Shown here piece after piece: positions 28,083 to 64,000 of a stretch of DNA of 64,000 nucleotides. Under the pieces are notes generated by a model, which was not told the origin of the DNA, ran no database searches, and worked only from the letters and a program-made list of their open reading frames with translations. Numbering within the stretch: the first letter of the stretch is position 1; every line of letters begins with the position of its first letter. A program made the position numbers and the translations under genes. The stretch covers positions 20,402,857-20,466,856 of the forward strand of contig OZ316893.1 of the NCBI GenBank assembly GCA_973895155.1. Reading direction: 5' to 3'. This DNA is from Marsupella aquatica. Its lineage: Eukaryota > Plantae > Marchantiophyta.

Positions 28083-28484
28083 CACTAGAAGAAAACAGGG
28101 CCCTTTATGACCAATCATCCAATGACGAAATTGAATCAATGACCAAAATTTCTAATGACACAAAAAGAATGACGGGAGAATGACTATCCACAATGACCAA
28201 TAGACTGAAATGACAAAATGATAACTTTTGTGTCATTTTATATAATGTCTGTAATGACTGATGCGACCAAAATGACACAATTTTCCTAAAATGGTCAATT
28301 TAGACATATGTCCTAAATGACCCAATAAATAACAACAATGATAAATCAATGTTTAGCACCATTATAGTCACTTTGGACAATGATTGAAATGACCAAAAAT
28401 CTATTTGGGTCATTTTGGACAACGGTGATAAATGACAAATATGTATTTCCGTCATTTTAACCAACGGTGTTAAATGACAAAATC

Positions 28485-28770
28485 TAGGGTCAATCTCAAA
28501 ATAAGAATATATCAATGTTTACAACAACATACTGTCATTATGGACTTCTCTCATAAATGACTAACTCTAGGGTTAATCTTGAAATTAGGATATATCAGTG
28601 TTTACAACAACATACTGTCATTATGGACTTGTCGCATAAATGACTAAATATAGAGTCAATCTAAAAATCATGATATATCAATGTTTACAATAACATACAA
28701 TCATTATGGACTTATTGCATAAATGACTACTTATAGAGTCATTAAAGAACCCAAGAGATATCAAAATTAA
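28485..28770. repeat. 83-bp tandem repeat x3.5 in the CACTA subterminal region
   Basis: ATATATCA.TGTTTACAA.AACATAC..TCATTATGGACTT at 28507, 28590 and 28673. Confidence 0.85.
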
Positions 28771-28869
28771 AATACTCAATAGTCATTCCAGACACCGGTC
28801 ATAATTGTAGAGTCATTGAAGAATTATGAGAATGACTACAATAAGGGTAATGTCAGTGGTCATATTAGA

Positions 28870-31800: not shown

Positions 31801-33340
31801 ATTAGGGAGATCCCTCATGGTGTCATTATGGACAAGCATAAATGACCAGTTTGGGGAGTTTGGGGCTAAGGGCTGGAAGTGGGCCCTAGAGTGTCATGGG
31901 GCCCTATATGGAACTGGCAACCTTTCCACTAGGTGTGGGACACTATACTAACTTACTATTCTCCAACCACTAGTTGCGCCATGAGCACTTTGAAGCCATG
32001 TTTTTGCAATTACTTAAGGGATGATACAACCTTGGGGAAATCACTCCCAAGTCATACGGCTTTGGAGTGATTTGCCAACACCACCATCGTGGATGAATAT
32101 CTTATGTTCCAAAGGCAAATGGATCCATTTGGTTTGTTCCTCCAAGAGGTAGTGCAACACCAATGGAATGGGCATGGTAGTGGTGCTTCCCTCTATGGTA
32201 TGTGTGCTGGTTAAAGGTATAGGAATATTCCATTTTTGCAAAGAATCTATAGTGGGGTCTGTTTGGAGGTACTAGGGCTTCATTGGGTCATTTCTAAACA
32301 AAATTATGTCATAAATACCATGGACTACACGTAGGGTCATTAAAATGGTCACATTGGATGTCATTTAAGTCAAATGACTGGAATTGTGGTCATTTGAGGG
32401 GTCCCTTGGGTAGTCATTTAGGGGAAGCACAAATAACCAATTTGGGGCTAGGGGCTAAACGTGGGCCCTAGAGTGCCATGTGGCCCACATAATGCTTGCA
32501 ACCCCTCCACTAGGCGCTGGAACTCTACTTACTATTCTCCACCACTAGTTACGCCATAATTATTGTTAAGGTATGTTTTTGCGCTTACCCTCCACTAGTA
32601 AGGCATGATGGAACTTTGGGGAAATCACTCCCAAGTCGTATGGCTTTGGAATGATTTTCCAAGACCGTCATCATGGATGGATATCTTATGTTCCAAAGGC
32701 AAATGGAGCCATTTGGTTTGTTTCTCCAAGACGTAGTGCAACTCGAATGGAATGGGCCTGGTTGTGGTGCTTCCTTCTATGGTCCATGTGCTTCCCTCTT
32801 TAGTATAAAGATATAGGAATATTCCAGTTTTGCAAGGAATACGGAACACGCTCTCTTTGGAGGTACTAGGCCCTTCATTGGGTCATTTCCAAACCAATTT
32901 GTGTCATAAATACCAATGACTACAATTAGGGTCTGAAAATTGGTCATATGGAATGTCATATAAGTCAAATGACTGGACTTTGGGTCATTTAAGGGGTCCC
33001 CTATGCAGTCATTTAGGCCAATCATTGGGGTTGTCATATGTAGGGTCATGTAGACCAAATGACGACATACGGAGTCATAAGAGAGGTAACTCCTTACAAT
33101 TTCATTCAGGACCTACACAAATGACACTTGGGGCTAGGAGCTAGAGGGGCTTGGTTTATTGAATACTTTGGAGGACTATTGGTTTTGGAATTTGGTGGGT
33201 TCTTTGGAGGTACCCTAAGGTCCTTTATTGGAGTATTTGCAATTAATGATGTTGCATAAATGCCAATGACAGGAAATAAGGTCATTAGGGCTATCATGTT
33301 GGATGTAGTCATTAGAATTGTCTGTCGTGATGTCATTCAA
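28870..33340. repeat. Tandem array of ~580-bp units (7 anchored units plus partial flanks) inside the CACTA
   Basis: Anchor AAATCACTCCCAAGTC....GACTTTGGAGTGATTT at 29130, 29706, 30282, 30845, 31429, 32038 and 32622. Confidence 0.92.
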
Positions 33341-35849: not shown

Positions 35850-37797
35850 GGGAACCCAAGAACCCCGCTAGCCTGCAAAGGGCTACTATTGTCTAGTTTA
35901 GGAACGATCTGCGTGTCCACAACAATGAGGCTCTGGTCAATGCCAGCAATGAATCTGTGTCAATTCTCCCCGTCTACTGCTTTGATCCTCGTGACTATGG
36001 AAAATCGTCATCGGGATTCGACAAAACCGGCCCATACAGAGCTAAGTTTCTTTTGGAATTTGTGGCCAATTTGCGAGAGAATTTGAGGCAAAGAGGCTTG
36101 GAGCTGATTGTGAGAATTGGGAAGCCCGAGGAGGTGTTAGTCACGCTAGCAAAGAGTGTTGGAGCCGATGCCCTTTACGCTCACCGAGAAGTGGCTATCG
36201 AGGAGATGGTTGCCGAGATCACGAAGGTCACTACTGCACTGAAGGAGAAAGGAGTGGACCCAAAATTCTTTTGGGGAAGTACCTTGTTCCACATTGATGA
36301 CCTTCCGTTCAAGCTGGACGAAATGCCTTCCAACTATGGTGGCTTCAGAGAGAAAGTACAGCAATTGGAAGTGAGAGCTACTATACCTGCTGCCAAGCAG
36401 CTGAAAGGGTTGCCTAATCGTGGCAGCGTCAAGGCTGGAGATATTCCATCCCTTCAAGACCTAGGATTGAATCCAACTTCTGCCAAGCGACCAGTAAGTT
36501 ATATTGTCTCATTTGTTTAAGAGACAATGGCATCATCTACTCACCAATCTCATCGAATTATGTTTCATTTTTTAGCTGAGGATCTGTTTGTGTTTGAACG
36601 TGAAGCCCTCACCCGTTAGTAAGCAAGAGCATATTTTTCGAGTCATGTGATTGGAGTTTTGTCGTGTTATCTATGCTTCTCTCAGGATCTTGGGCATGGT
36701 AAAACCTATGTTAACTTTCAAACCCTTGGGTTGCTGTGGGCAAGGTGAATTTGAATAAAGATATAGACCAACCCAATCAAGAATCTGTATTAGTATTACG
36801 AATATAACAGGATGGGGAATGCGATGGGGATGGTGGAGGTGCCTATCCCTTCTTCCCCCAAGTACTAGTTCTTTTGTGTTTTCTTAAGGGGTTTCAAACA
36901 AGTTCCAACTTCTGTAAGTTACTGATCGCCATAGGTAATTGAAACGCGGACCACTCACATTCAATCAATGCACAGCTGCAAATATGGAGACTTTTCTGTA
37001 TACAATATTGCAGTTCTAGGTCTCTATGTTGTTTCCTTCATGAAGGGGAGGATCATGCGTGACATTATATTTTACAGCGCACTTAAACCTTAAAAGGACT
37101 TGTGAGGAAAATTATTCCTATCTCTCATAGTAAGACAATTTTGCACCAAACATAATCACGTGCCGACTGTAGTCTTCTTTTTGTTAGATTTGTGTCTATT
37201 GAATTTGGTGAGAACCTAATGTATGTGTAGACTGCAGACTCTTAATGGTCTTCAGGTTAGTATTGTTCTCTATATCCCCTGAGGAGTTCTGCGTTTTCTG
37301 CTCCAGATGCATTTTCCACCTCTTAACCTTGTTTTCAACACCGGAAAGGGTGGCTTTTGTGATCTTTCTTTGCCACTTCCTATTGGGAGTTGATTTTAGA
37401 TTTGTACTTGGCTAAGCTGGAGTATTTGGTTTAAGTAAGGTGTGAAGCGAGTGAAGTCGGATTGTCTCTGCACCCCACAACCTCTCTCACAGATATATCT
37501 GAGGGAGAAAGGGAAAAATGTTAGACTCAACTCATAAGAGTGGCCCTTTCCTAGGGGCGATTTAGCATTATCATTGACTTCCCATTTAGAGAGAATTCAA
37601 CTTGATTTGAATGCCTGGCATTGAGTTTTCACATTCTTGCTAAGCAGGAGAAAAGTACTCCATACGGAGGGGCTCTACTGGTAGGAGGTGAAGAGGAGGC
37701 ATTGCAGAGACTCAAGAGTTTTTTGATCAAGACATCAAGTCTGTCCACGAGCAAAAGTAGTGACGGGAAGAAGACTGGCGACAACATCTATGGTGCG
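35850..37797 (+). pseudogene. PHR2: Captured PHR2 (photolyase/blue-light receptor 2, CRY-DASH-like) fragment; exon ~35850-36493, intron 36494-37644/37647, exon to ~37797
   Basis: RATIV*FRNDLRVHNNEAL...LPVYCFDPRDYGKSSSGFDKTGPYRAKFL...FWGSTLFHIDDLPF...GDIPSLQDLG | ...VGGEEEALQRLKSF...NIYGA. Trp->TAG at 35894-35896; similarity stops before the expected NFSCKISPWLA. GTAAGT donor and NAGNAG acceptor, phase 0. Confidence 0.9.
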
Positions 37798-39541: not shown

Positions 39542-41761
39542 TATAGAGCTCCAACCAGGTATGGACAATGGGCAAATTCTTGGGCAGATTCATCTAAACT
39601 AGATGATGTTGATATTGCGCCTGACGATGATCATATGGCTTTGATCTTGGAAGAAGGAGAGTCTTCTTCGTATCATGAGGCAAGTGCTTCAAAGCATAAG
39701 CAGGACTGGACTGTAGCAATGCAAATGGAGATGCAGTCATTGAAGGACAACAAAACTTGGGAGTTGGTCAAGCTTCCTAAAGGCCGGCAAGTAGTGGACA
39801 GCAAGTGGATTTACAAGCTAAAGGATCAATCCACAGGAGGTGGATCGAAAGTCTACAAGGCTAGATTGGTAGCCAAGGGATTCACACAAGAGAAAAGTGT
39901 GGATTACAATGAGGTCTTCTCACTAGTTGCTAAGTACTCTACAATACGGCTATTGCGCGTACTTGTTGTTTTATTTGGTCTGTTGCTAGAGCAGATGGAT
40001 GTTGTCACAACTTTCCTCTATGGCACCTTGGAAGAGGTGATCTTCATGAGATAGTCGCTAGTTTTGTGAAGAAAGGGCAAGAGGATTTGGTTTGTAGATT
40101 GTTGACATCCTTGTACGGGTTGAAGCAGTCACCAAGGCAGTGGAAAAAGCGGTTTGACGATTGGATCCATACACAGGGTTTTTACAGGAGTGTATTTGAT
40201 CCTTATGTGTATCTTAAACCGGTGAAGAATGTTGTCTTTGGTTTCATTGTTTTAGCACTTTATGTGGATGACATGCTTATTGCGGCCAAAGATAGATCTG
40301 AGATTGTTAAGCTCAAGGCACTACTCAGTGCAGAGTCTAAGATGAAGGACTTAGGGCCAGCTAAAAAGATTTTGGGTATGGAAATCACTAGGGACTTGGA
40401 GGCTGGTAAGCTATGGTTGACGGAGAGCAGTTATGCAAGGAAGATAATTGCAAGATTCAACATGAGGGATAGCAAGCCAGTTAGTACCCGTTGGCTCCAC
40501 ACTTCAAGTTGTCATCAGCTTTCTGTCCTACAGATGAGAGAGAGAATGGGCTAATGTCAAAGGTTCCTTATGACAAGGCAGACAGAGGGGAGTCTCATGT
40601 ATTTGATGACTTGCACTAGACCTGATCTTGCCATGGCTATGGGCAAGGTGAGCAGGCGGGTGAGCAGGTACATGTCGAATCCAGAGAAGGGTACACTAGG
40701 AAGTAGTGAAGTGGATTTTTTGGTACTTGAAGGGTACCGTGGATCATGGTCTTGTGCTTGATGCACATGCTGATAATGCGAGATCATTGATGGGATATGT
40801 AGATGCTGACTATGCACAGGATTTGGATCAGAGAAGGTCAACAACCGGGTTTGTGTTCACACTTGGCGGTGGATGCATAAGTTAGAGGTCTACTTAGTTT
40901 GCATAAGTGTATTGCTTAGTTTACTACAGAAGTTGAGTATGTTGCAACAACGGAAGCAGCGAAGAAAGCTATTTGGTTGGATAGACTGATCACTGAGATG
41001 GGAGTGCCACAAGGGAATGTAAAGCTCCATTATGATAGTCAGAGTGCTCTTCACTTTGCTATGAACCAAGTGATGGACAGTATCTGAGTTAAGCACATCG
41101 ATGTCAGGTGCCATTTTATCAGGCAGGGTGTGTCTGATAATCAGTTTGAGCTAGTCAAGATTGACGGTAAACTCAACTCGGCTGACGCATTTACAAAAGT
41201 GATTCATTTGGAGATTTCCGCAAGACACCGTGCTACTTTGTAGGTTTTGCAATTGAAGCACAAGTAGAGCTACTTAGCAATTTTTGTGATTTATTGTATA
41301 TGGATTCCTTGATCCTGTTAGGCTATGGCTTAGTTCTAGTTAACCTTTAGTTAACCCATGGTGGTTTTTAGGGGGAGACCTATTTAGGTGATTGTCTAGA
41401 ATTTCTCGCTGAGGATACCATATGGTAGCAATTAGTCCAGTCCCCAAGACTAGAGTCAAGGGAGAGTTTTGCTGAGTATTACTCTTAGTCTTGTGACTCT
41501 AGAGCTAACCATAGTTAGGCTAACTCAGATTAGGACTTAGCTGAGGTTAGCAATGATGCATGTTGTATATAACCAGGGCTGATGCCAGCCCTTGGTGGAT
41601 CTTTAGCTCATTGTTGGAGTGGAGCAAGAGAGAAGTAAAGGTCTCTTGCTTTCCCAGGGACGTAGCCTCAATCGTGAGGTGAACCACGTACTCGGTGTGT
41701 TGACTACTTTGTATGGTGGTCACATGTGCATGGTGTCTTGGGATAAGGATTATCCCCAACA
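39542..41761 (+). mobile_element. pol: Copia-1, right piece: decayed RT-RNaseH, PPT and 3' LTR
   Basis: YKARLVAKGFTQ, SLYGLKQSPRQW, LYVDDML, TRPDLA with several stops and frameshifts; PPT AAGGGAGAG at ~41458-41466. Related to Copia-2. Confidence 0.92.
41470..41761 (+). repeat. 3' LTR of Copia-1 (~292 bp)
   Basis: TGCTG...CCCAACA directly after the PPT; shares GGACGTAGCCTCAA...GAGGTGAACCACGTA with the Copia-2 LTR. Confidence 0.75.
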
Positions 41762-43847
41762 TGGAGTACATGAAATTCAGATTGGAATATGTGACACGGG
41801 TAACGTGTCACTTAACGGAACCCAGGTCATAGATTAGGCCTTATACGGGCATTAGGACCATAACCATAGCGTAGAATAGCACGTGTAGCCGTTTGTTGCC
41901 ATTATGAATAGATTAGGAGTAGGTTAAAATGACCGAATAATTACGAGTTCAGGAAGAGGATTTTTACGCCCGACCGAGGTACGGTGGCGGAGTAAAAATC
42001 AGTTAGAAGAATCACGCTTGGACCGAGGTGCCGACTTCAGCTCGTTATCAATGACCAAAACGGCCTGGCCTTCTCACGCTCGGGCTCATCCTGGCACCTC
42101 CATAAGAGAGGAGCCGATGGTGCTCTTTACAAGGAGATTATCAAGGGAGAAGAGCGGAATGTGGCGAGATTTAGTCAGGACGAGCGAGGCCTCCACGAGA
42201 AAGAGGACCAGCCGGGTGGGAACGTGGACTCAACGAACCGGACTACGAGGTTAGTATGACCTTCACAGCCTTGGGATTTTGGACCTTGTTTGGCGAGGTT
42301 GGTGCTAAGTTCTCCAAGACTTACTGGTACTCTTGTCCCGAGAAAGCCGCTTACGAACGAAGATACGCGAAGCTGGTAACCAAGGTAGCACTGGTTAATT
42401 GCGAAAGGACAGCCATCACCAAGGATTCCAGCTACAACGAGCTGCAAGACTACATCACCGAGCTATATCTCAGCGAGGAAGGGCTTAGATCGGTAGCTGA
42501 GGCGATTCTTGAGGTTCCAGCGAAGTTCTTTAAGCTAAAGGGCAGCCAGCGGCTTACACAAGCGGAGTTTGACAAGATTCCAGGGTACCTAGACCAGCAG
42601 ATCGCAACCAAAAAGTGCCAAGAAGACATCAGCAAACAACGGGAAGCGGCGCGTAATCTTACATTTTTTGGGGAAAGCTCCAACGCCTTCAACTGGGATA
42701 TGGCTACCCCGATACCACCAGTGCCTCAGCCGATGACCACCGGCGTACCGCCAAACCGGTCCCAAGTCCGTCCAGTAATCAACACAGAGTGTTCTTCGGG
42801 TTCCGAGCAAGCTAGTCCGCAACTCGAACAGCGTCCTCGTAAGCGGCCAAGGACTACGACGGCCCCCGAATCAACAACGCGGACCAACGCCGCGCCTGCA
42901 CCTGCCCCGGTAAACCCCCCGACCAACCAGACCCGACGGCCCCCGGATAACCCAAAGTCCAACTTATTACAGGTAATCCGCGTCCCCGAAGTAGTTTGGA
43001 TCGCGATCAAGAAACTCGAACATGCGGACTATCTAAAGGAGCATCAGTTGGAGCAGTTCGCTCACTTGCTTTGGAGGCCGTGTGCCGCCGGGCCGAAGGA
43101 GATTTGTGAGGTCATCTCCAATTTTGACATTGACGCATCGACCACCAAGGTTTCGGGGCAGGCCTTATCACTCACGGAGCATCAGTTAACGCAAATCTTC
43201 TGCCTACCCACCGGCCCAGTGCCAGTGGAAATCCGAATTTGGGATAAGGAGTATATGCCGCGGCACTTCAAACCCGAGGGTAAGACGGACAACGGATACA
43301 AGCAGGGGGCGTGCACCAACTTAACCTGTATGGAGCGGCTTAACTTCATACGGACTACCCTACACATGATTGAGCCACGATCCGAGATTTCCCTCTACAC
43401 GATCGTGCAGGTGGAACAGTATAAGCGATGAAACTGGGCCCAATTCTTCTATCGAAGATTCTCGGGGGAGCTAAAGCGGGCTCAGGGTGGTATGGCTATT
43501 GGGGGGAAGACTTATGTGACACGCGCAACGTGTCACTTGACCGAACCCAGGTCGAAGATTAGGACTTATACGGTCATAAGGACCGTAGCCATAGCATAGA
43601 ATAGCACGTATAGCCGCCAAGTTGCCATTATGATTAGATTAGGAGTAGGTTAAGATAACCAAATAATTGCGAGTTCAGGAAAGGGATTATTACGCACGAC
43701 CGAGGTACGGTGGCGGCAGCGGAGTAAAAATCAGTTAGAAGAATCACGCTTGGACCGAGACGCCGACTTCAGCTCGTTATCAATGACCAAACGGCCTGAC
43801 CTTCTCATGCTCGGGCTCGTCCTGGCACCCCCATAAGAGAGGAGCCG

Positions 43848-46376
43848 ATGGCACTGCGGGCCATTCGCTCACGTTTACCTTTTTGGAATTCACGGACGTT
43901 GCCATCCGCTCGCCTTTTTGATTGAATCCAGTCGACCTTTACGAGGAAATTATCGAGGGAGAAGAGCGGAATGTGGCAAGATTTAGTTCAGGACGAGCGA
44001 GGCCTCCGCAAAAAAGGACCAGCCAGGTGGGAACGTGGATGCAACGAACCGGACTACGAGGTTAGTATGACCCTCACAACCTTGGGATTTTGGACCTTGT
44101 TTGGCGAGGTAGGTGCTAAGTTCTCCGAGACTTACTGGTACTCTTGCCCCGAGAAAGCCGCTTACGAACGAAGGTACGCAAAGCTGGTAACCAAGGTAGC
44201 ACTGGTTAATTGCGAAAGGACAGCCATCACCAGGGATTCTAGCTATAACGAGCTGCGAGACTACATCACCGAACTATATCTCAGCGAGGAAGGGCTTAGA
44301 TCGGTAGCAGAGGCGATTCTTGAGGTTCCAGCTAAGTTCTTTAAGCTGAAGGGCAACCAGCGGCTTACTCAAGCGAAGTTCGATAAGATTCCGAGGTACC
44401 TAGACCAGCAGATCGCAGCCGAAAAGCGCCAAGAAGACATCAGCAGACAACGGGAAGCGGCGCGTAATCTCACGTTCCTCGAGGAATGCTCCAACGCCTT
44501 CAACTGGGATATGGCTACCCCAGCGCCTCAACCGATGACCACCGGAGTACCGCCGAACCAGTCCCAAGTCCGTCCAGTAATCAACGCGGAGTGTTCTTCG
44601 GGTTCCGAGCGAGCTAGTCCGCAACTCGAACAGCGTCCTCGTAAGCGGTCAAGGACTACGACGGCCCCCAAATCAACACGGACCGACGCCGCGCCTGCAC
44701 CTGCCCCAGCAAACCCCCCGACAAACCAGACCCGACGGCCCCCGAATAACCCGAAGTCCAACTTATTATAGGTAATCCGCGTCCCTGAGGTAGTCTGGAT
44801 CACGATCAAGAAACTCGAACATGCGGACTATCTCAAGGAGCATCAGTTGGAGCGGTTCGCCCACTTACTATGGAGGCCGTGCGCCGCCGGGCCGAAGGAG
44901 ATTTGTGAGTTCATCTCCAATTTCGACACTGATGCGTTGACCACCAAGGTTTCGGGGCAGACCTTATCACTCACAGAGCATCGGTTAACGCAAATTTTCG
45001 GCCTACCAACCGGGCCGGTGCCGGTGGAAATTCGAATTCGGGATAAGGAGTATACGCCGGGGCACTTCAAACCCGAGGGTAAGACGGACAATGGATACAA
45101 GCAGGGGGCGTGCACCAACTTAACCTGTATGGAGCGGCTTAACTTCATACGGACTACCCTACACATGATTGAGCCACGATCCGAGATTTCCCTCTGCACG
45201 ATCGTGCAGGTGGAACAGTACAAACGACGAAACTGGGCCCAATTCTTCTACCGAAGATTCTCGGGGGAGCTGAAGCGGGCTCAGGGTGGTATGGCTATTG
45301 GAGGGAAGACTTACTTGGGAAGTCATATCGCCATTATCCTCGCCTGGTACAAGGCACGGCGGGAGGCCAGAGGAAAGAATACGGCCACCTCAGCCCCGGG
45401 TAATGTCACCCCCGCCCCAGAGGAGGCAACCCCGACTACGCGGACTACTGTCCCTCGGACAAACCCCGAGCCGGAAGCCCCGACTAATACTCCGCAACCG
45501 CCCCCTGTGGAAATTCCACCGCCTCCTTCCATTGAGCCTCCGCTACCTGCAGTACAACCACCCCCAATCCCTCCACCACCTGAAGAAACCTTCCCCTCCC
45601 CAGCGCTGACTACGGAGGAGCTCATTGCCCCTGCCGAGGAACCATCGGTACCCGAGAGGATGGAGGACTACCAAGTAGCTCCGGGGACCATGGCCTACGA
45701 CCTGGTCCAGAAGTTTAGCCAGACTATGTCTGGGGAGTTGGCGACATACATCGGACAACAAGTCTCGGCGTACTTTCAGCCAGCCTTCTTCATGTTAGAG
45801 CACCAACCACGGATCGTCAGCTGCTTGGAAGAAGAACTCATGGCGAAGGGGAATGAGATCGAGCATCTCCAGATGCTGGTAGATCACCTCGAGGAGGAGG
45901 CAACGACCCGCCGCGAGGATTTAGTCCGCACTGTCGAACAGAGGGACGGACTAACCCAGGAGTTAAGCGGAGCGCAGGCCGAACTCAAGAAGCTGGACGA
46001 CACCGTGCTTCAATTACGCTCAGAATCTTCGGCTCGGGTTACCAGCCTGACCGACCTCAACAAACAATTCCTGCATGCAGCACAGCAGGTGGCTAGTCTC
46101 TCCGCCGAACGAGATAAATTGCTAGCGTAGGACCAGGTCCATCGCGACGCCCTCGACCAGCTCAACTTGGAGGTGGCGCGGCTCCAGACTGAAGCCGATG
46201 AAGCTGCAAACGAGGCGGAGGAAGCATTACGGGACAACAAGGCTTTGCAGGACCGCGTCACCCTGCTCGTCCTCCAGCGGGGAAACCTGGGCCCACCTCT
46301 GATCAAGGCGGCTCGAGGTCTCGCCCCGACAAGGGGACCAGCCCTGGTCCAACCACTGCACACACGTAAGGGGTAG
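43848..46376 (+). pseudogene. ~842-codon ORF inside the Gypsy-B LTR (helical N-domain, plant-transposon-protein-like domain, Pro-rich linker, coiled coil)
   Basis: ATG 43848 and track ORFs 43971, 44847 and 46167 are all in one frame, broken only by three point stops (TGA ~43923, TAG 44769, TAG 46128). The latter two are CAG in Gypsy-A. Confidence 0.85.
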
Positions 46377-47363
46377 TTAGCGAAGGGTAGAAGCAGGCGC
46401 CGTGCGAGGCGGTTAAGTCAGCGGCATCTTTTAGTTAGGTGTAACGACAGAATGACTGTCATTAGGCGCCGATTAGCGATAGTAGGAAGAATTAGGGCCG
46501 GTCAGTTAGGATCAGCCAATGTAGGATTGAGTCCATCAACGGACTAGAGTTTGTCAGTAGGCTTGGCCGCTGCCATTCCGGTTGGCACACTCGTCGTCGA
46601 CGGTCAACCGGTCAGTGCCGCGCGACCAGTAGTCAGCAGTTAGTTAGTCAGTAGGTAGTACCCCGGAAGGTAGTATCCTCCGGTTCTCTTCTGCTATGGT
46701 CGTATTTAGGCTTCCCCTTCCGCAATGGGAAGGGGGAGAAGGCTTAGTTATCTCAGCAGAAGAAAGGCGAGGCACGGGGAGTCCCGGCCTGAGTAGGGTC
46801 AGAGCGTACCAAGGAGTGAGAGCCAGAGTCGAGCTTGCTGGGCAAGTGCGAGGCAGGGCCTTGTAGAGACTGGGCATCGACTGCCGTTGGGCCTGCTGAC
46901 CCCCTTTGAAGTCGAGTCAACCATGTAAACTGATGCTTCGCTGAGTAAATGTAGTCTTTTCCCCCTAATGTTTCTGAGAGTAACTGGTGTTGTGTGTATG
47001 CTTTGTCCGGGCAAAGGCGCCATTTTAAGGGACGTACCGGGTGCGGACTAATGGTAGGGATTGCCACTCATTGCATGTCACAAGTTCTTGTCACGTCGAT
47101 GGCTTGAAAAGCCCCAAGTCGGGAGTTAGTCCGCGTCACTAATTGAGGGAAAATTCCAGCGGTGGAAAATAAATATACCTATGTCAAATTATGCGAGTGT
47201 TATACCAGTAAGTATAGCGGCTTAGCCCGACTTAGGGCTATTGAAGGTCACTACACACCTCCTTGCCCGAACCCTCACCCCTATTGGTGGTCGAGGTCGC
47301 ACCACGACACTAACCCGGATTTAAGGCCCAGGGTAGGGGTGCGACATACGGCGACCGGTTTTT

Positions 47364-47380
47364 TGGCGCTAGATGGAGGG
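47364..47380 (+). promoter_or_regulatory. Primer-binding site, tRNA-Asn-like (Gypsy-B)
   Basis: TGGCGCTAGATGGAGGG, one mismatch to the complement of the plant tRNA-Asn 3' end as I recall it (TGGCGCTAGAAGGAGGG). Identical copy at 52596-52612. Confidence 0.7.
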
Positions 47381-47460
47381 GGCACTCACTTTGCCTTACG
47401 AGTGGAGCCGTGTAGTGAGCTAGTTACTTTTGATTTTGTACTCGACGTGAAGGAAGGGGC

Positions 47461-50259
47461 ATGCCCCTTACCCGGTCACGTTCTGCGTATTTACAACAAT
47501 CGGATGGAGCATCACGGTTGGAAGAGAATACCGCGACCGGCGAAGCGGGGAGCTCGGCTTCCCAAGCAGGATCCCGTGTTGTGATGGGTACCCAAGCACC
47601 GATCGCGGGAGGAACTCCACGGTTCCACCAGCCCTGCAGGTACCAGGTGCATTGCGGCCCCCTGCGGCTCAGAACGTGTCACAGCGATCCCGGTTTCACT
47701 ATCGACCCTTTAAGGGACGACCCACAGACAACCCTGATGAATGGATAGCTGAGTTCGAGGCCACGGCCAAGGCGAATGGTGAGGAAGCCATTAAGCTAAC
47801 CACTCTTCCAGGCGTACTACGAGGAGAAGCGCGCCCGTGGTATAACTTACAACCCCCGGGTTGTACATGGGGCCAGTTCCAAACGGCGTTCTTGCAAGAA
47901 TTTCGGCCCGTCGGGATCGAATCTCAGGCCCTGTCAAAAATCGGGCGAATGCAAATGGGTAAGCATGACTCACTTCGCAAATTTCTGCAGCGGTTCCAGA
48001 AGGTTGCCGCCAAGATTCGGCCTAAGCCAGATGACTCTCTACTGAGGAAATGGTTCGTCAACGCGCTACCCCAGAGGATGGCGTTCTCAATGCTAGAAAA
48101 GAAGACCACCACTCTACAACAAGCAATTGATAGTGCCAAATCCTTCAAGGAATCGCACTATGCCTCTCAGCTTAATAGGAGGACCAAGCATAAGAAGAGC
48201 AGGAGGTATCATACCTTCAGCGACTCCGACTCTGAGTACGACGAGAAAAAAAGGAAGAAGAAACGACGACATAAGAAGAAGGGTCGGACCAGCTCTTCGT
48301 CAGACTCTGATTCAGAGTCTAGTGATTCCCTGTCCACTAGCCCGACGTTAACTGGCTCATCCTCCAGCGAGACCGAGTCAGAGTCTCGAGACCACAGAAG
48401 AAAGAAGGGATCACGGTCAGATACGGGTAAACATAAACCGTGAGCCAAAGTCGTCACCACGGACCTAAAGGTTGCGGAGGTAGAAAAGCTGAACGAAATC
48501 ACAGACCGGCTGAAGGCACTGTCGGTGCACTTGGCGGAAAAACCTCCGGACAAGAAGAAACCACCGGAAATCTGAGCGCATGCTTGGTGCTCCAAGTGTT
48601 ATCAGTCGGGACATGTGGTGCAAGAATGTCCAAGATGGAACACTCGCGTGCACCAGATGGAGTTGGAGCCCGGACAGTCCGAGCCAGAGGGATGCACGAT
48701 GGAGTAATTCTTCGAGGATCCAAGTGAGGCGGTGTTCCAGATGAGTATGACGGGACCTCGCACCCTAAGCGGCCACAATCCAGGGTTCCATACCCCTTAT
48801 CCATATCCGGTGAATGGGCGTGGCCCCCAGATAGTCAACAATCCAAGTATCCCACCTAAACCCGGAGTTTGGCGGACCCCGGTTTGCTATAATTGCGAGA
48901 AACCTGGTCACTTTGCCCGAGAGTGCACGGAGCAAAGGAAGCAAGGGGATGGGAGACCGCTTCCATTGTGCGAGGTCTGTCGAACCAAAGCACATTCCAC
49001 GTCAAACTGCCCCTTGGTGCTAGCCGCGAAGGCCGGCGCCGTCAGAGCTGCTCAACCTGCGGCCCCACCAATTACGGATGCAGTAGTACAAATGGTAACA
49101 ATGGAATGGCAGGACGACTCCACCAAATGGATCGATCTCATAGAGGCAGTCGAGCAAACAGGAACGCACGTGGACGACGAGTGCTATCGCGTTTCTACCC
49201 GATCATCCCGCAAGAAGAATAAGTACAAAGAACGAGATCGGAAGGATGCCCAGCAGAAAGAGGCGGTCGCAGATAAGAATAGTCCAATGGAACCAGACGA
49301 GCTGGAAGACTACCAGCGGGATAACCCGAAGTTATTCTACCCACGAGTAGAGGAACTGGTCAAAAAACAATTGGAAGCCTACGAAGCCCAAGAGCACGAG
49401 AAAGCCATTAAGAAGGATATTGCCGATGCTAAGGCGGCCGAAGAAGCCGAGAAAGCTGAGATTGCCTTGCAAACTGAAGTCAAGGGAGCAGAAGCAGTAA
49501 AATCTGCGACCCCACCGTCTAACCAATATGACATCAAAAAGGATGTTCAGAACTGTGCAGCCACAACCACTGTCGAACAACTATTGCAGGATAACCCGAA
49601 GTATCGGCAACAACTCAAAGAGATGCTGATAGGAAAGAGGAGGCGACGGCTACCTCGGGTAAGCACCTTAGCCGACTGTATGATGATTTACTAGGACTTA
49701 GGAGCGCCGGAAGTCTCTATCGAGATAGCGGGCTGTACTGTTCGGTTTGTACCGATAGACGGAGGGTCCGGTGTAAACATCATGACAGAGGACACTTCCG
49801 TAAGGTTGGGATATACATCTTATCAACCCACGGCGCGCACCATTCGGTTAGCAAACGGCGCCAGGATCATGCCACTGGGGACGTTAACCAAGATATCCAC
49901 GTGGATTGGAGGCCTCGAGTTCTTTCTAAATTACCTGGTGATGCGACCCGTCCAACCCTCTTCTTATCCAGTACTGCTGGGCAGACCCTGGTTATACGGT
50001 GCCCAAGTCGTTACTGACTGGGGAAGGAAGGAATTACGATTCGGTAACCCGACTACGACGGTGTCCTGGAAGGAAGAAGACTACCAGGGCGAGACGCCCC
50101 AGGGACCCGAAGAATATGACTCGGAGGAGGACATCTCAGAAGAAGAGGTGAATATGGTGGAGTTAATCTCTTGCCTGGATGAAGAGGAAGTCTTCGGGGT
50201 AAATGCCGTCCGAGAAGCCCATATTCTGAACCAGCCCAGACCAGCAGCCCAAATCGAAG
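47461..50259 (+). pseudogene. gag: Gypsy-B gag-protease, decayed and truncated before RT
   Basis: Capsid motifs PFKG..DNPDEWIAEFE, LRGEARPWY, TWGQFQTAFLQEF; three CCHC knuckles; protease PIDGGSGVNIM and LLGRPWL; stops plus one frameshift. Confidence 0.88.
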
Positions 50260-52595
50260 CATTGCATGTCACAAGTTCTTGTCACGTCGATGGCTTGAAA
50301 AGCCCCAAGTCGGGAGTTAGTCCGCGTCACTAATTGAGGGAAAATTCCAGCGGTGGAAAATAAATATACCTATGTCAAATTATGCGAGTGTTATACCAGT
50401 AAGTATAGCGGCTTAGCCCGACTTAGGGCTATTGAAGGTCACTACACACCTCCTTGCCCAAACCCTCACCCCTACTGGTGGTCGAGGTCGCACCACGACG
50501 CTAACCCGGATTTAAGACCCAGGGTAGGGGTGCGACAACTTACTTAGGAAGTCATATCGCCATTATCCTCGCCTAGTACAAGGCACGGCGGGAGGCCAGA
50601 GGAAAGAATATGGCCACCTCAGCCCCGGCTAATGTCACCCCCGCCCCGGAGGGGGCAACCCCGAGCACGCGGACTACCGTCCCTCGGGCAAACCCCGAGC
50701 CGGAAGCCCCGACTAATACTCCGCCACCTCCTCCTGTGGAAATTCCGCCGCCCCCTTCCGTTGAGCCTCCACTACCCGCAGTACAACCACCCCCAATCCC
50801 TCCACCACCTGAAGATATCTTCCCCTCCCCAGCGCTGACTACAGAGGAGATTGTTGCTCCACCCGAGGAGCCACAGGTACCCGAGAGGATGGAGGACTAC
50901 CAAGTAGCCCAGGGGACCATGGCCTATGACCTGGTCCAGAAGTTTAGCCAGACTATGTCTGGGGAGCTGGCAACATACATCGGACAACAAGTCGCGGCGT
51001 ACTTTCAACCAGCCTTCTTCATGTTAGAGCACCAACCACGGATCGTAAGCCGCTTGGAAGAAGAACTCATGGCGAAGGGGAATGAGATCGGGCGCCTCCA
51101 GATGCTGGTAGAGCACCTCGAGGAGGAGGCAACAACCCGCCATGAGGAGTTAGTCCGAACTGTCGAATAGAGGGACGGACTAACCCAGGAGTTAAGCGGA
51201 GCGCAGGCCGAACTCAAGAAGCTGGACGACACCGTGCTTCAATTACGCTCAGAATCTTTGGCTCGGGTTACCAGCCTGACCGACCTCAACAAGCAACTTC
51301 TGCAGGCAGCACAGCAGGTGGCTAGTCTCTCCGCCGAACGAGATAAATTGCTAGCGCAGGACTAGATCCATCGGGACTCCATCGACCAGCTCAATCTAGA
51401 GGTAGCGCGGCTCCGGACTAAGGCCGATGAAGCTGCAAATGAGGCGGAGGAGGCGGTACGGGACAACAAGGCCTTGCAGGACCGCATTACCCTGCTCGTC
51501 CTCCAACGGGGAAAACCTGGGTCCACCTCTAATCAAGGTGGCTCGAGGTCTCGTCCCGACAAGGGGACCAGCCCTGGTCCAACCACTGCACACACGTAAG
51601 GGGTAGTTAGCGAAGGGTGGAAGCAGGCGCCGCGCGAGGCAGTTAAGTCAGCGACATCTTTTGGTTAGGCGTAACGACAGAATGACTGTCATTAGGTGCC
51701 GATTAGCGGCAGTAAGAAGAATTAGGGCCGGATCAGTTAGGATTAGCCAACGTAGGATGGAGTCCATCAACGGACTAGAATTTGTCAGTAGGATTGGCCG
51801 CTGCCATCCCGGTCAGCACCTTGTCGTCGTCAACCAGTCAGTGCGGCGCGGCCAGTAGTCAGTAGGTAGTTAGTCAGTAGGTAGTATCCCGGAAGGTAGT
51901 ATCCTCCGGTTCTCCTCCACGATTGTAGTATTTAGGCTTCCCCTTCCGCTATGGAAAGGGGGAGAAGGCTTAGTTATCTCAGCAGAAGAAAGGTGAGGCA
52001 CGGGGAGTCCCGGCCTGAGTAGGGTCAAAGCGCACCAAGGAGTGAGAGCCAGAGTCAAGCTTGCTGGGCAAGTGCGAGGCAGGGCCTCATAGAGATTGGG
52101 CATCGACTGCCGTTGGGCCCGCTGACCCCCTTTGAAGTTGAGTCAACTATGTAAACTGATGCTTCGCTGAGTAAATGTAGTCTTTTCCCCCTAATGTCTC
52201 CGCAAGTAACTGGTGTTGTGTGTATACTTTGTCTGGGTAAAGGCGCCATTTTAAGGGACGTACCGGGTGCGGACTAATGGTAGGGATTGCCACTCATTGT
52301 ATGTCACAGGGTCCTGTCGTGTCGATGGCTTGAAAGGCCCCAAGCCTGGAGTTAGTCCGAGCCACTAACTGAGAGAATATTCCAGCGGTGGAAAACAAAT
52401 ATACCTATGACTAGTACGAATTATGCAGGTGTTATACCAGTAAGTAGATCGACTTAGCCTGACTTAGGGCTAATAGAGGTCACTACACACCTCCTTGCCC
52501 GAACCCTCACCCTTACTGGTGGTCGAGATCGCACCATGACACTAAACTGGATTTAAGGCCCAGGTTAGCGGCGCGATATACGGCGACCGGTTTTT

Positions 52596-52612
52596 TGGCG
52601 CTAGATGGAGGG
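52596..52612 (+). promoter_or_regulatory. Primer-binding site, tRNA-Asn-like (Gypsy-A)
   Basis: TGGCGCTAGATGGAGGG, 17 nt after the LTR end at 52578. Confidence 0.7.
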
Positions 52613-52692
52613 GGCACTCATTTTGCCTTACGAGTGGAGCCGTGTAGTGAGCTAGTAACTTTTGATTTTGTACTCGACGTGTAGGAAGGGGC

Positions 52693-55600
52693 ATGCCCCT
52701 TACCCGGTCACGTTCTGCGTATTTACAACAACCGGACGGAGCATCAAGGTTGGAAGAGAATACCGCATCCGGCGAAGCGGGGAGCTCAGCTTCCCAAGCA
52801 GGATCGCGTGTTGTGATGGGTACCCAAGCACCAATGGCAGGAGGAACTCCACCGGGTCCAACAGCCCCGCAGGTACCAGGTGCGTTGCGGCCCCCTGCGG
52901 CTCAGAACGTGTCTCAGCGATCCCGGTTTCACTATCGACCCTTTAAGGGACGACCCACGGACGACCCTAATGAATGGATAGCTGAGTTCGAGGCCACGGC
53001 CAAGGCGAATGGTGAGGAAGCCATTAAGCTAACCATCCTTCCAGGCGTGCTACGAGGAGAAGCGCGCCCGTGGTATAACTTACAACCCCCTGGTTTCACA
53101 TGGGGCCAGTTCCAAACGGCGTTCTTACAAGAGTTTTGGCCCGTCGGGATCGAATCTCGGGCCCTGTCAAAAATCGGACGAATGCAAATGGGTAAGCATG
53201 ACTCACTTTGCAAATTTCTGTAGCGATTCCAGAAGGTTGCCGCCAAGATTCGACCTAAGCCGGATGACTCTCTACTGAGGAAATGGTTCGTCAACGCGCT
53301 ACCCCAGAGGATGGCGTTCTCAATGCTAGAAAAGAAGACCACCACTCTACAGCAAGCAATTGATAGTGCCGAATCCTTCAAGGAATCGCACTACGCCTCT
53401 TAGCTTAATAGGAGGACCAAGCATAAAAAGAGCAGGAGGTATCATACCTTCAGCGACTCTGACTCTGAGTACGATGAGAAAAAAAGGAAGAAGAAACGAC
53501 GACATAAGAAGAAGGGTCGGACCAGCTCTTCGTCAGACTCTGATTCAGAGTCTAGTGATTCCCTGTCTACTAGCCCGACGTCAATTGGCTCATCCTCCAG
53601 CGAGACCGAGTCAGAGTCTCAAAACCACCGAAGAAAGAAGGGATCACGGTCAGATACGGGTAAACATAAACCGCGAGCCAAAGTCGTCACCGCGGACCCA
53701 AAGGCTGCTGAGGTAGAAAAGCTGAACGAAATCACAGACCGGCTGAAGGCACTATCGGTGCACTTAGCGGAAAAACCTCCTGACAGGAAGAAACCACCGG
53801 AAATCCGAGCGCATGCTTGGTGCTCCAAGTGTTATCAGTCGGGACATGTGGTGCAAGAATGTCCAAGATAGAACACTCATGTGCACCAGATAGAGTTGGA
53901 GCCCGGACAGTCCGAGCTAGAGGAATGCACAATGGAGTACTTCTTCGAGGATCCAGGTGAGGCGGTGTTCCAGATGAGTATGACGGGACCTCGCACCCTA
54001 AGCGGCCACAATCCAGGGTTCCATACCCCTTATCCATACCCGGTGAATGGGCGTGGCCCCTAGATGGTCAGCAATCCAAGTATCCCACCTAAACCCGGAG
54101 TTTGGAGGACCCCGGTTTGCTATAATTGCGAGAAACCTGGTCACTTTGCCCGAGAGTGCACGGAGCAACGGAAGCAAGGGGATGAGAGAGCGCTTCCATT
54201 GTGCCAAGTCTGTCGAACCAAAGCACATTCCACGTCAAACTGCCCCTTGGTGCTAGCCGCGAAGGTCGGTGCCGTCAGAGCTGCTCAACCTGCGGCCCCA
54301 CCAATTACGGATGCAGTAGTACAAATGGTAACAATGGAATGGCAGGACGACTCCACCGAGTGGATCGACCTCATAGAAGCAGTTGAGCAAACGGGAACAC
54401 ACGCGGACGATGAGTGCTACCGCGTTTCTACTCGATCATCCCGCAAGAAGGACAAGTACAAAGAATGAGTTCGGAAGGATGCCCAGCAGAAAGAGGCGGT
54501 CCCGGATAAGAATGTTCCAATGGAACCAGACGAGATAGAAGACTACCAACGGGATAACCCAAAGTTATTCTACCCGCGAGTAGAGGAACTGGTCAAAAAG
54601 CAATTGGAAGCCTACGAGGCCCAAGAGCACGAAAAAGCCATTAAGAAGGATATTGCCGATGCGAAGGCGGCCGAAGAAGCCGAGGAAGCTGAGACTGCCT
54701 TGCAAGCTGAAGTCAAGGGAGCAGAAGCCTTAAAATCTGCAACCCCACCGTCTAACCAATACGACATCAAAAAGGATGTTCAGAACTGTGCAACTACAGC
54801 CACTGTTGGACAACTATTACAGGATAACCCGAAGTATCAGCAACAACTCAAGGAGATGCTGATAGGAAAGAGGAGGCGACGGCTACCTCGGGTAAGCACC
54901 TTAGCCGACTGTATGATGATTTACCAGGACTTAGGAGCGCCGGAAGTCTCTATCGAGATAGCGGGCTGTACTGTTCGGTTTGTACCGGTAGACGACGGGT
55001 CTGGTGTAAACATCATGACGGAGGACACTTCCGTAAGGTTGGGATATACGTCTTATCAACCCACGGTGCGCGCCATTCGGTTAGCAAACGGCGCCAGGAT
55101 CATGCCACTGGGAACGTTAACCAAGATATCCACGTGGATTGGAGGCCTCGAGTTTTTCCTAAATTTCCTGGTGATGCGACCAGTCCGACCCTCTTCTTAT
55201 CCAGTACTGTTGGGCAGACCCTGGTTATACAGGGTGCGAGTCGTGACTGACTGGGGAAGGAAGGAATTATGATTCGGTGACCCGACTACGACGGTGTCAT
55301 GGAAGGAAGAAGACTACCAGGGTGAAACGCCCCAGGGACCCAAAGAATATGACTCGGAGGAGGACATCTCAGAAGAAGAGGTGAATATGGTGGAGTTAAT
55401 CTCTCGCCTGGATGAAGAGGAAGTCTTCGGGGTAAGTGCCATCCGAGAAGCCCATATTCTGAACCAGCCCAGGCCAACGGCCCAAATCGAAACACCCGGG
55501 AGACCAGAAGGAGATGATGCGGCAACGGGCGGGGCATTCCCCGGAGTAGTGAGCCCTACGAAGGCAGTTGGCCGGCTTGCCTTGCCCGGTTTACCCGACA

Positions 55601-57563
55601 AAAACGCTACTCAGACCACTCCTCCCGCAAAGAAAAAGATTACCTGGAGCCCCAAGATTCCATCCGTAATAGAGGAACCCGAGGAGCTCCCAAGGGAGCA
55701 ACCGACAATCTGGGAACCCGTGGCCTACGATGGCACCAGACTAGAGGAATTGGAGGCTCGTCTTGACCGGGCCACCAAAGACCATGTGGATGTGATCCGC
55801 AAGGAACACTATAGCAAATACACCACAAAGAGGGAAAGAACATTCAACGTCGGTTATGGCCTACGAGCGCCAGAGGAAAAGGCCATCCAAGAACTCCTAT
55901 CGGAATATGAGGACGTCTTCGCATGGAGTCACCAAGACTTAACCGGGATTTCACCGGCCTACGGCGAACACGTCATTGATCTAAACTTGGGTGCTCATGC
56001 CGTCCGAGAAAGACAACAAAGACTAAACCCAAGACATTCCATCTTGGTAAAGGAGTTAGATCAACTGATCGTGGGAGACATAATCTACCCCGTCTTATCT
56101 AGTGAATGGGTATCCCCCATTGTGGTGGTTCCTAAGAAGGTCGGGCCTGATGGAAAACCCAAAATTTGAATATGCCAAGACTATCGGAAGCTCAACGACG
56201 CTACTCGGAAGGACCATTACCCGCTTCCTTACACGGATATGGTCCTTGACATGGTAGCCCAGAATGAGGTGTACACGTTCCTAGATGGATATTCGGGTTA
56301 TAACCAGATTTGGATCAGACTATCGGACCAGCTCAAAACCACGTTCATAACTGAGTGGGGAACCTACGCGTTCCGGCGGATGCCCTTTGGCTTATGCAAT
56401 GCTCCGGCTATGTTCCAGCGAATCATTATGAATATTTTTCATGACTTCTTACGAGAATTTTTGGAGGTGTTCATAGATGATTTCGCCATCTTCGGAACAA
56501 TCACCCAACACCCGGAACACCTGAGGCGGACTTTGGAGCGATGCCAAGAAGTAGGGTTGAAATTACACCCGGACAAATGCTTCTTCGGGGTAACAAAAGG
56601 AGTGCTACTAGGACACCAAGTGTCCAAACGGGGGATCGAGGTGGACCAAGAGAAGGTTGCCGCGTGGATGAATGTCCCTTACCCAGCGGACTAGAAGGCG
56701 GTGCAATCCTTCTTAGGCTGCGTAGGGTACTACCGACGATTCATTCAGGATTTCGCTAAGATAGCCCTACCCCTCACAGAAATGATGAAGCAAGACGCGG
56801 TCATAGAAATGATTCCCCGTCGAAAATCAGCCTTTGACGAACTAAAAAAACAGCTAACGATGGCTCCGATTCTGACTACCCCCGATTGGAACAAAGAGTT
56901 CCATGTATATGTCGACGTGTCTGGGTTCTGCATCGGCTCAGTCCTAAGCCAACTGGACGACAAAAAACGTGACCACCCCAATTACTTTGCGAGCCGACAA
57001 CTGTTTGCCGCAGAGAAAAACTATTCGCCCACAGATCGGGAGGCCTTGGGGATCATCTACTCGTGCAAAAAGTTTTGCTATTATCTATTGGGGTATAAGG
57101 TGGTATTCCATACTGATCATGACAGCCTGAAGTACATGGTAAACAAAGCAGACTTAACGAGGAGAATAGCCCGTTGGGTCCTGCTGCTCCAAGAATTTAA
57201 CTATGTAGCAGGGTGCGATCAGGGAAAGCTCACGTAAATGCGGACTTCTTCTCGAGGATCGAAGGGGAATCAGACGACGCACCTGTCGATGACGCATTCC
57301 CTGATGAAGAGTTATTCCGCGTAGAAACGGACCAACCAACGTGGTACGGGGACCTGATCACCTTCCTCTTAATGGCCCGCATTCCAAGTAACATAAACCA
57401 AGAGGCCGCGTCGGTCTTTCTGCGCAAGGCCGCACCATACATGATGATCCGCGGACATCTGCATAAGGAAGGCGTCGATGGGAAGATCCGCAGATGCCTA
57501 GATTATAACGAGACGATCATTGTCATGCGAGCTATGCACGAGGAAGAGGCAGGAGGACACTTG
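52693..57563 (+). pseudogene. pol: Gypsy-A gag-pol (gag, PR, RT, RNaseH, start of INT zinc finger)
   Basis: One frame from 52693 to ~57210 with point stops. RT DYRKLN, LDGYSGYNQI, MPFGLCNAP, FIDDF; RNaseH YVDVSG...EKNYS..DREAL...TDHDSLKY; breaks off at the INT HEEEAGGH motif. Confidence 0.92.
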
Positions 57564-58338
57564 ACCTATGACTAGTACAAATTATGCAGGTGTTATACCA
57601 GTAAGTAGATCGACTTAGCCCGACTTAGGGCTAATAGAGGTCACTACACACCTCCTTGCCCGAACCCTCACCCTTACTGGTGGTCGAGGTCGCACCATGG
57701 CACTAAACTGGATTTAAGGCCCAGGTTAGCGGCGCGACAGAATACATAATCCATATTGCCTTCACTTCATAGTTTGTGTAGCCTCCGCTACTCAAATCTG
57801 AAGATATAATCCATATTGTCTTGACTTTGCATTTTGGGTAGCGGCGGTTGTAATTCTGCGGTTCCCCTAACCGTGTTGTTTGGCCGTTTTGTTTGACAAT
57901 GCAAGGTTGGGTACAAGGTTTGACAGTCATGGTTGACCACAAAGGTTGTTGAGAACATAGTTGGTCATTGCATCAAGCAAATTAAAATTGGTTAGAGTGA
58001 TTGCTAGAAGAACAACCGACACAAAAGTGTAGCATGCAGGGGGCCTATTAGGTAAAAAAACATTTGTAGGGGCCCATCAGTAAGAAAGTTACACCAGAGG
58101 ACCCATCAAGCATATACCTTGTCATTTTCAGTGCGGAAAAAACAAAAACAATATAAGGCTTAAATACATAGTAAAGAGTAGGGCATGGGCATAGGCTTAG
58201 CCTTGACCATTTTTTTCTCATCTTGACATTTTTTTTCTCTCCTTAACATCTTTTCTTCACATTTCAAGACATTTTTTTCTTATCTCACTTTGACATTTTT
58301 TTTCACCATGATGTTAGGCATTTACTCTTGGGTCTAGG

Positions 58339-58741
58339 TGTTGAGCATAGACGACGATCGCAACGGCAAGCCCATGAACCATCCAACGCACAATAGTCGA
58401 CACAAGAGATACGTGGTTCACCTCCTTGAGGCTACGTCCACGGGAACACACAAGAGAGCTTTACTGAACTCTAAGCCCGTCGGCTATACCGAGTCTCCAC
58501 AGTGTAAGCTCTCCCTATCTCTCAAGTGGCTCCATAACAATGAGCCTTGGTTCTACCTCTCCAAGCACACATGCCTCTTATGATATAGTGTGCAACTTAG
58601 TTGTACCTAACCACATAGTTGTACCTAACCACATAGTTGTACCTAATCACGTAGTTGTACCTAACCACATAGTTGTACCAACCCACATTGTTGTACCAAC
58701 CACGTCATACCTAACCTAGACGTAAGAGTAAATACCCAACA
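58339..58741 (-). repeat. 3' LTR of Copia-2 (403 bp) with an internal 18-bp tandem repeat
   Basis: PPT (complement of ATCTTCCCCTTGA, 58742-58754) abuts it; TAGTTGTACCTAACCACA repeated ~6 times at ~58598-58703. Confidence 0.93.
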
Positions 58742-58932
58742 ATCTTCCCCTTGACTCTGGTCTAGGGGAGAGTAATACTGCCAATGTATATGATCCCTCA
58801 GCGGGAAGTTCTGGACAGAAACCAAACCGGTTTCCCTCTCTAACTAGAGCAAACCAGAACTAAGCCGTAGCCTAATACATAGGAATGAGGAAGAGCATAT
58901 ATCAGTAATTACAATGAATGTTTAAGAAAACT

Positions 58933-63932: not shown

Positions 63933-63944
63933 GCTCTGATACCA
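63933..63944 (-). promoter_or_regulatory. PBS complementary to initiator tRNA-Met
   Basis: Minus strand TGGTATCAGAGC, 2 nt from the LTR end. Confidence 0.95.
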
Positions 63945-64000
63945 ATTGTTGAGCATAGACGACGATCGCAACGGCAAGCCCATGAACCATCCAACGCACA

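Follow-up and report, generated by a model that had tools for sequence, protein, structure and literature searches.

Plant long terminal repeats (LTRs) are treated as non-coding, and the formation of solo LTRs as a process that kills the element; the question raised by the locus considered here is whether a retrotransposon LTR may house a conserved gene of 2.3 kb, which gene would survive solo-LTR formation, and, if so, what its product might do. The locus lies in a 64,000-nucleotide stretch of the liverwort Marsupella aquatica (contig OZ316893.1, positions 20,402,857 to 20,466,856; hereafter the window, from whose first letter all coordinates are counted), in which a preliminary description had noticed a Ty3/gypsy family with an LTR of about 3.8 kb that encodes a protein of about 840 amino acids (aa). 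We propose, with a probability of roughly 0.55, that this LTR carries a gene maintained by selection and that the product, as predicted structures suggest, would be a DNA-binding factor of the VANC/PMD fold that counters the host's silencing of the family.

Self-comparison of the window and a reading of the element ends revealed two 3'-deleted copies of one Ty3/gypsy family, both on the forward strand: an outer element A (41790–57739; target-site duplication, or TSD, GAATA) and an inner element B (43515–50537; TSD ACTTA), the latter inserted in the gene of A's terminal unit, which gene it splits. Both copies have TG...CA termini and a 5-bp TSD. Element B begins with TGTGACAC at 43515, preceded by ACTTA, and ends with GTGCGACA at 50537, followed again by ACTTA; GTGCGACA is present also at 47346, before a TGGCGCTAGA resembling a primer-binding site (PBS) and gag. 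The ends and the TSD thus confirmed that the repeat starts at 43515 and that its end at 47346 is the same as the 3' terminus of the element. A unit of about 3.8 kb opens both copies with TGTGACAC and closes with G(T/C)GCGA(C/T)A. We describe this unit as the 5' LTR, on the strength of the public contigs presented below. In B it measures 3832 bp (43515–47346); in A it measures 3761 bp and is divided by B into a left part containing the gene from a likely ATG at 42256 (41790–43514) and a right part with the remainder of the gene and the tail (50538–52578). The units of A and B are 92% identical.

Downstream of the unit, B contains gag, zinc knuckle and protease (PR), truncated before the reverse transcriptase (RT; 47461–50259), and then a 3' LTR remnant of the last 278 bp (50260–50537); A contains gag, PR, RT and ribonuclease H (RH), cut at the integrase (INT) start (52693–57563), and then a remnant of the last 176 bp (57564–57739). 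The Pfam matches follow the order gag, zinc knuckle, protease, RVT_1 and RT_RNaseH, while the start of the integrase in A was read by eye. Both 3' remnants join directly onto the truncated pol, at junctions that differ, B being cut after the protease and A at the integrase start. The remnant of B has 4 mismatches in 278 bp to its own 5' unit (98.6% identity) and that of A has 5 in 176 (97.2%), and the identity to the other copy's unit is only 85–90%; the remnants are therefore closest to their own 5' unit, as expected of LTR pairs, and B is younger than A, as the nesting requires. Copies A and B are dead, 3'-deleted relics. Neither has a second long repeat, and the window holds no polypurine tract (PPT) and no second TGTGACAC end of the family, which circumstance makes the LTR of the preliminary description an inference as far as the window goes. 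A PBS and gag had also been placed after the unit; both are there, with the PBS-like TGG starting 17 nt past the LTR end and not within 0–5 nt of it.

Evidence on the nature of the unit came from public contigs, which are too short to span a whole element. The unit occurred in six of the seven contig runs listed, from four studies and four organisms, with no RNA dataset named among them, which does not bear on expression; the depth was determined along 43400–50700 and at the left end of A for four runs from two studies. In these four runs the depth began sharply at TGTGACAC, at A's left end, formed a plateau across the whole unit and stepped down at its right end, with all 15 unit bins exceeding all 11 internal bins in each run. 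The median depth of the unit was 7.8–14.1 times that of the internal region (gag-PR), as summed contig depth, which is not copy number; since two LTRs per element would give about a twofold excess, there are likely to be many solo or truncated LTRs that bear the gene. The letters upstream of TGTGACAC were diverse in all four runs (8, 10, 15 and 12 contigs; agreement 0.38–0.45), as expected of many insertions. In three of the four (1, 3 and 2 contigs), moreover, one common PPT-like sequence—the purine run GAGT(A/G)GGGAGC plus TA—abutted TGTGACAC, and the fourth run, X2, had no PPT-like flank among the contigs listed. A common purine-ending flank at TGTGACAC is what precedes a 3' LTR, and the PPT that the preliminary description had anticipated before TGTGACAC has its counterpart directly upstream in these six contigs.

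Reverse transcription homogenises both ends of an LTR in each round. Given this homogenisation, and given that the gene lies between the ends in copies that are 8% apart, we conclude that the gene is carried in both LTRs, and its residence in the LTR is in our estimation highly probable. The description of the 3.8-kb repeat as an LTR accordingly holds in that the left end acts as a true LTR start in the contigs, though a complete LTR pair is absent from both window copies; likewise, the window, where the 3' ends retain 278 and 176 bp, does not display the duplication of the gene in each provirus, but the contig evidence for the LTR start favours it.

The gene, for its part, comprises in B about 769 codons from a likely ATG (44067–46376) and is broken by stops at 44769 and 46128. 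The existence of a single sense frame, formerly given as 43848–46376 and about 840 aa, was confirmed, and its length was revised to about 770 aa. The region 43848–44066 holds a stop at 43923 in B as well as an 81-bp deletion and two frame-breaking indels in A, family contigs have comparable indels at 43987 and 44009, and six homologous proteins have their first residue where B has the ATG at 44067, an ATG that A possesses as well. That stop, those indels and the starts of the homologues make about 769 aa the better estimate: translation probably begins at 44067, and the preceding 73 codons (43848–44066) are probably not coding in the frame first proposed, although the coding region might extend upstream of 44067 in another frame. 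Among the 12 listed of 19 family-contig indels, none falls between 44010 and 46281; over the last 30 codons or so, copies differ in reading frame, with an indel at 46282.

The aligned part of the gene contains six in-frame stops, two in B and four in A, at six positions of which none is common to both, each stop being one transition away from the sense codon of the other copy; this pattern is consistent with decay after insertion and bears out the deduction that the ancestral open reading frame (ORF) was intact. The pairwise ratio of nonsynonymous to synonymous substitution rates (dN/dS) between the genes of A and B was 0.24 (95% bootstrap interval 0.17–0.33; 745 codons) and thus not near 1, with 0.13 in the central domain and, equal to the whole gene, 0.24 in gag-PR. 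As controls, two shifted frames gave 0.88 and 1.58, and six pseudo-frames of the non-coding LTR 0.59–1.05. To judge by these substitution patterns, the gene is under purifying selection, evolving like gag-PR.

The translation confirmed the layout that had been read from the sequence, namely an N-terminal domain (44067–44504) kept in full-length homologues, a linker 1 with a basic RPRKR patch, a central domain of about 198 aa (44772–45365), a Pro-rich linker (45366–45680), and a predicted coiled coil (45790–46282), in whose best register L, I, V or M occupies 57% of the a/d positions versus 10–40% in the other six. The N-terminal domain had no usable match in the ESM Atlas and none in Pfam. The central domain folded from the single sequence reached a pLDDT of 32, and AlphaFold2 with a 35-row alignment attained a pLDDT of 95.9 and a pTM of 0.91. 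Among the ESM Atlas look-alikes, streptophyte clusters came first, with PMD and DUF1985 clusters at 0.93. The top Foldseek match was the crystal structure of VANC21 with DNA, a weak one (TM 0.51, E 0.51); against viral models Foldseek gave no match at E ≤ 0.001, and a search of PDB sequences with the alignment returned coiled-coil-like rows only. In VIA-align, VANC21 was the sole chain of 104 with Z ≥ 2 (Z 8.2, root-mean-square deviation [rmsd] 3.8, 183 residues aligned), and when 48,161 chains were compared independently it was the sole one at Z ≥ 5 (Z 8.1, rmsd 3.9, 188 aligned), the next reaching 2.7. The match of the model to VANC21 is thus of middling strength, but it stands alone and extends over the whole domain of about 198 residues; together with the PMD and DUF1985 look-alikes, it lends structural support to the guess, made from the sequence alone, of a PMD-like or anti-silencing protein. 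According to the literature, VANC21 recognises a short motif and removes methylation from its own family (PMC5735166), VANC and the PMD of MAIN/MAIL are structurally alike (PMC13547354; 10.1101/2024.09.27.615353), and coiled coils are predicted to mediate the oligomerisation of VANC21 and of the Athila domain (PMC13547354; 10.1101/2024.09.27.615353; 10.1101/2024.04.02.587720).

An exhaustive protein search found 36 proteins at E ≤ 0.001, nearly all via the central domain and 22–41% identical, unlike word-indexed searches with that domain, which gave no matches; one of the 36 (P0020) is a bacterial repeat protein without relation to the others and was excluded from the alignment. We looked up 24 of these homologues, and the 12 that carry an organism name are all from Calypogeia fissa. 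Three (P0054, P0050 and P0040) contain both the N-terminal and the central domain, some have the same four-part layout, and one of the 36 had a sub-threshold match to Transposase_32 (E 2.2e-5). By accession order in Calypogeia no homologue of the gene was adjacent to the RT proteins looked up, and locus searches of metagenome and viral contigs did not find the gene; a relative's polyprotein as query found one 4-kb contig and nothing in viral or prokaryote collections. In an RT tree (98 of 120 matches passed the length filter, and 56 were kept after thinning, with no labelled reference lineages), the RT of the element fell in a clade of seven rows with three Calypogeia and three metagenome RTs (support 100/99), which clade sits in a wider one that also contains rows from Riccia and Marchantia. 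The nearest complete relative polyprotein, P0080, has the full order gag-PR-RT-RH-INT without an aRH domain or a chromodomain, and neither occurs in the scanned parts of A, whose integrase and 3' part are deleted. On this evidence, the element is probably Athila-like or an aRH-less Tat (cf. the liverwort Tat in PMC13468544).

Against the proposal of an LTR gene with an anti-silencing product stand several observations. With regard to the LTR, the PPT evidence consists of 30 letters from six contigs, without a link to an integrase, and neither a contiguous full-length 3' LTR nor a TSD-flanked solo LTR was found in the window or in the public contigs, too short as these are to span one; furthermore, a related Ty3/gypsy element on the metagenome contig L001 has no trace of the gene in the 1.55 kb upstream of its PBS, so that this position of the gene may not be common to the whole lineage. 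With regard to the fold, neither the window protein nor any of the 36 homologues had a Pfam match to PMD (PF10536) or to DUF1985 (PF09331, with limits of E ≤ 1 for the window domain and E ≤ 0.05 for the homologues), our profile missed the Transposase_32 regions of two Athila-like polyproteins, and the VANC match is middling in absolute terms (Z about 8, 10–12% identity, rmsd 3.8–3.9, Foldseek E 0.51). A shared fold shows no function, and the role originally ascribed to host PMD proteins was to promote the silencing of transposable elements (TEs; PMC5418596). Finally, no 5–8-mer was enriched over shuffles in the non-coding parts of the LTR, and the targets of VANC are tandem motif arrays.

The Tas protein of foamy viruses is a plain transactivator of the LTR promoter, and the product of a gene in the LTR might in our case, too, bind DNA or chromatin to another end—as such a transactivator, as a tether that targets integration, or as a self-limiting repressor like MAIN/MAIL1. 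The same structural data fit this explanation, no motif arrays were found in the non-coding LTR, the N-terminal domain matches no family, and the PMD proteins MAIN/MAIL1 act in silencing (PMC5418596). We nevertheless hold it to be less likely, since the sole solved structural match is an anti-silencing protein and PMD-C proteins reportedly act against Polycomb silencing (10.1101/2024.09.27.615353); a self-repressor that abundant solo LTRs would spread, besides, is harder to square with the selection that acts on a selfish element. An env-like or movement protein, for which the long coiled coil might speak along with the frequent labelling as env-like of the sense extra ORFs that Athila-like elements carry at their 3' end (PMC7264820), appears very improbable: the protein has no stretch of transmembrane-level hydrophobicity (best 19-residue Kyte–Doolittle mean 1.13), no viral structure was listed among the matches at E ≤ 0.001, and the solved match is a DNA-binding protein.

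Another explanation concerns the unit rather than the protein, in that full-length members might have an asymmetric or short 3' repeat, the short remnants being then normal, or the unit might be a non-autonomous element of its own. Both copies keep just the last 176–278 bp at the 3' end, the two deletions (50260 and 57564) stopping within the last 278 bp of 3832, which outcome has a probability of 0.005 under a model of uniform breakpoints applied post hoc; a gap of 17 nt before the PBS-like site is unusual in view of the criterion of 0–5 nt in PMC6317226; and the unit is far commoner than gag-PR. The PPT-like sequence before TGTGACAC in three of four runs, however, would be expected only if a 3' LTR starts there, the two breakpoints are unlike on either side, with pol interrupted at separate sites, as independent deletions would produce, and a complete relative polyprotein with integrase exists (P0080), so that we consider a unit of this kind unlikely. 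The clustering of the 3' breakpoints could have arisen by chance, or by a template switch at an early stage of minus-strand synthesis, the plus strand then being rescued from a second RNA.

If the preferred reading is correct, and a selected LTR gene encodes a VANC/PMD-fold factor that counters silencing, the following course of events may be envisaged. The gene would lie in U3, reverse transcription would therefore transfer it from the 3' LTR to either end of the new copy, and recombination between LTRs would leave it behind in solo LTRs; its doubling in each element and its persistence in solo LTRs would thus follow from its seat in the LTR, and the gene-bearing solo LTRs would explain the 8–14-fold excess of the unit over gag-PR. 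Transcription might start at a promoter in the head of about 550 bp and end by polyadenylation in the R of the same LTR, whose non-coding tail in B (46377–47346) presumably contains promoter, R and U5; alternatively, the genomic RNA might express the gene from its 3' end. The protein would enter the nucleus by means of the RPRKR patch in linker 1, oligomerise through its coiled coil, bind a family-specific motif in the non-coding parts of the LTR, and remove or block repressive marks in trans on intact copies, whether DNA methylation or trimethylation of histone H3 lysine 27 (H3K27me3), which mark has been described on TEs in some lineages. We would suggest only tentatively that the product is an LTR-encoded, sequence-specific de-silencer for which solo LTRs constitute a dispersed, many-copy supply in trans, and that the VANC/PMD fold was already borne by retrotransposons in liverworts, which circumstance would favour a retrotransposon origin of MAIN/MAIL and VANC.

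Among known systems, the VANC proteins of the VANDAL (MuDR) DNA transposons (VANC21, PDB 9lnj/9lnk, DUF1985) are alike in the predicted fold over nearly the whole central domain, and in being TE-encoded accessory proteins with low-complexity linkers and a coiled coil (PMC13547354). They differ, however, in sequence, the identity being 10–12% and the window protein having no DUF1985 match in Pfam; in context, the present gene being encoded in the Ty3/gypsy LTR of a liverwort element and not in VANDAL/MuDR, with VANC described as dicot-specific; and in their tandem target motifs, which were not found in the non-coding LTR here. The PMD (PF10536) extra ORFs of Ogre are likewise accessory ORFs of Ty3/gypsy elements of the OTA type and are, like host MAIN/MAIL, likely of the same structural clan (Atlas 0.93), whereas the ORFs of Ogre are internal—431 of its 434 PMD matches being 3'-reverse and 3 being 5'-forward (PMC6317226)—and the present one lies inside the LTR, in sense orientation and without a PF10536 match, with no aRH in the relative's polyprotein. 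Closer in orientation are Athila ORF1 (PF03078), with 166 cases 3'-forward (PMC6317226), and Transposase_32 (PF20167), both of which resemble the present case in an aRH-less, non-chromovirus polyprotein, a 5-bp TSD, the sense direction, and a globular domain with a long coiled coil; those ORFs lie between pol and the PPT, however, and the window protein has no Pfam match. A shift of the PPT could have brought into U3 a gene that lay immediately before the 3' LTR. Genes within LTRs are known from retroviruses, as exemplified by sag of the mouse mammary tumour virus and the overlaps of nef and bel; in those animal retroviruses, too, a protein gene in U3 is doubled at both ends by reverse transcription, although the proteins are unrelated and the LTRs much shorter.

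In plant Ty3/gypsy elements, the extra ORFs, those with PMD included, are placed in the internal region by PMC6317226 and PMC7264820, and in the open-access literature we found no plant LTR-resident gene of this kind, in agreement with the preliminary description, which knew of none. By its predicted fold the protein is a VANC/PMD-like accessory factor, and neither its sequence nor its context makes it a VANC or PMD protein; the new part is the position inside the LTR, the fold being already known from the internal extra ORFs of Ogre. If the proposal is true, leftover solo LTRs might help to keep the family switched on, and the gene would be a candidate for sequence-specific anti-silencing by a retrotransposon, which activity has until now been shown for VANDAL DNA transposons. 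The VANC/PMD fold would also be extended to liverwort elements, which extension bears on whether the genic PMD came from Gypsy or the reverse (PMC5418596), and a new VANC-like family with new target motifs could serve in epigenome editing.

The non-coding parts of the LTR have several further features. A perfect hairpin with an 8-bp stem and a 5-nt loop stands at the LTR start (43516–43536 in B, 41791–41811 in A), the loop differing between the copies. Just past the gene, at 46377–46760, we observed an excess of TTAG, TCAG and TAGG on one strand (TTAG 11 versus 0), noticed post hoc and not significant in unbiased tests, which word cluster may be regarded as a candidate binding region; a 15-bp tandem at 46630–46659, likewise picked post hoc, is a lead only. 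A scan for bacterial promoters was empty, a kind of scan that is irrelevant here. The TGG-initiated PBS-like site (47364–47381 in B) begins 17 nt past the LTR end in both copies (gaps 47347–47363 and 52579–52595), and L001 is similar, with a gap of 19 nt (about 1551–1569) if its LTR end is as we infer. TGGCGCTAGA is putatively of the tRNA-Asn type. A search for a self-priming complement of the 40 nt after the LTR gave chance-level matches inside the gene only.

As to the surroundings, the nested pair is flanked on one side by a nearly intact Ty1/copia element with a pol frame of 1090 aa (58339–64000, reverse strand) and on the other by a degraded, inverted relative of that element (39548–41760, forward strand; 84%), and A was inserted about 30 bp past a copia LTR. 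A tandem array of at least eight diverged units of about 580 bp occupies 28470–33300, with three 83-bp repeats ahead of it. The open frame at 1–1182 (reverse strand) has no Pfam match and looks by eye like the C-terminal part of a non-LTR retrotransposon of the restriction-like-endonuclease type. In the related element on L001, an ORF at 1965–2240 (forward strand), between PBS and gag, encodes an Elf1-like zinc-ribbon transcription elongation factor (PF05129, E 4e-28), which seems to be a host gene captured into the 5' leader. Host genes within the window are represented by the last exon of an R2R3-MYB-like gene (15190–16425) and an exon of the photolyase family (35897–36520), both on the forward strand, the latter being presumably PHR2-like.

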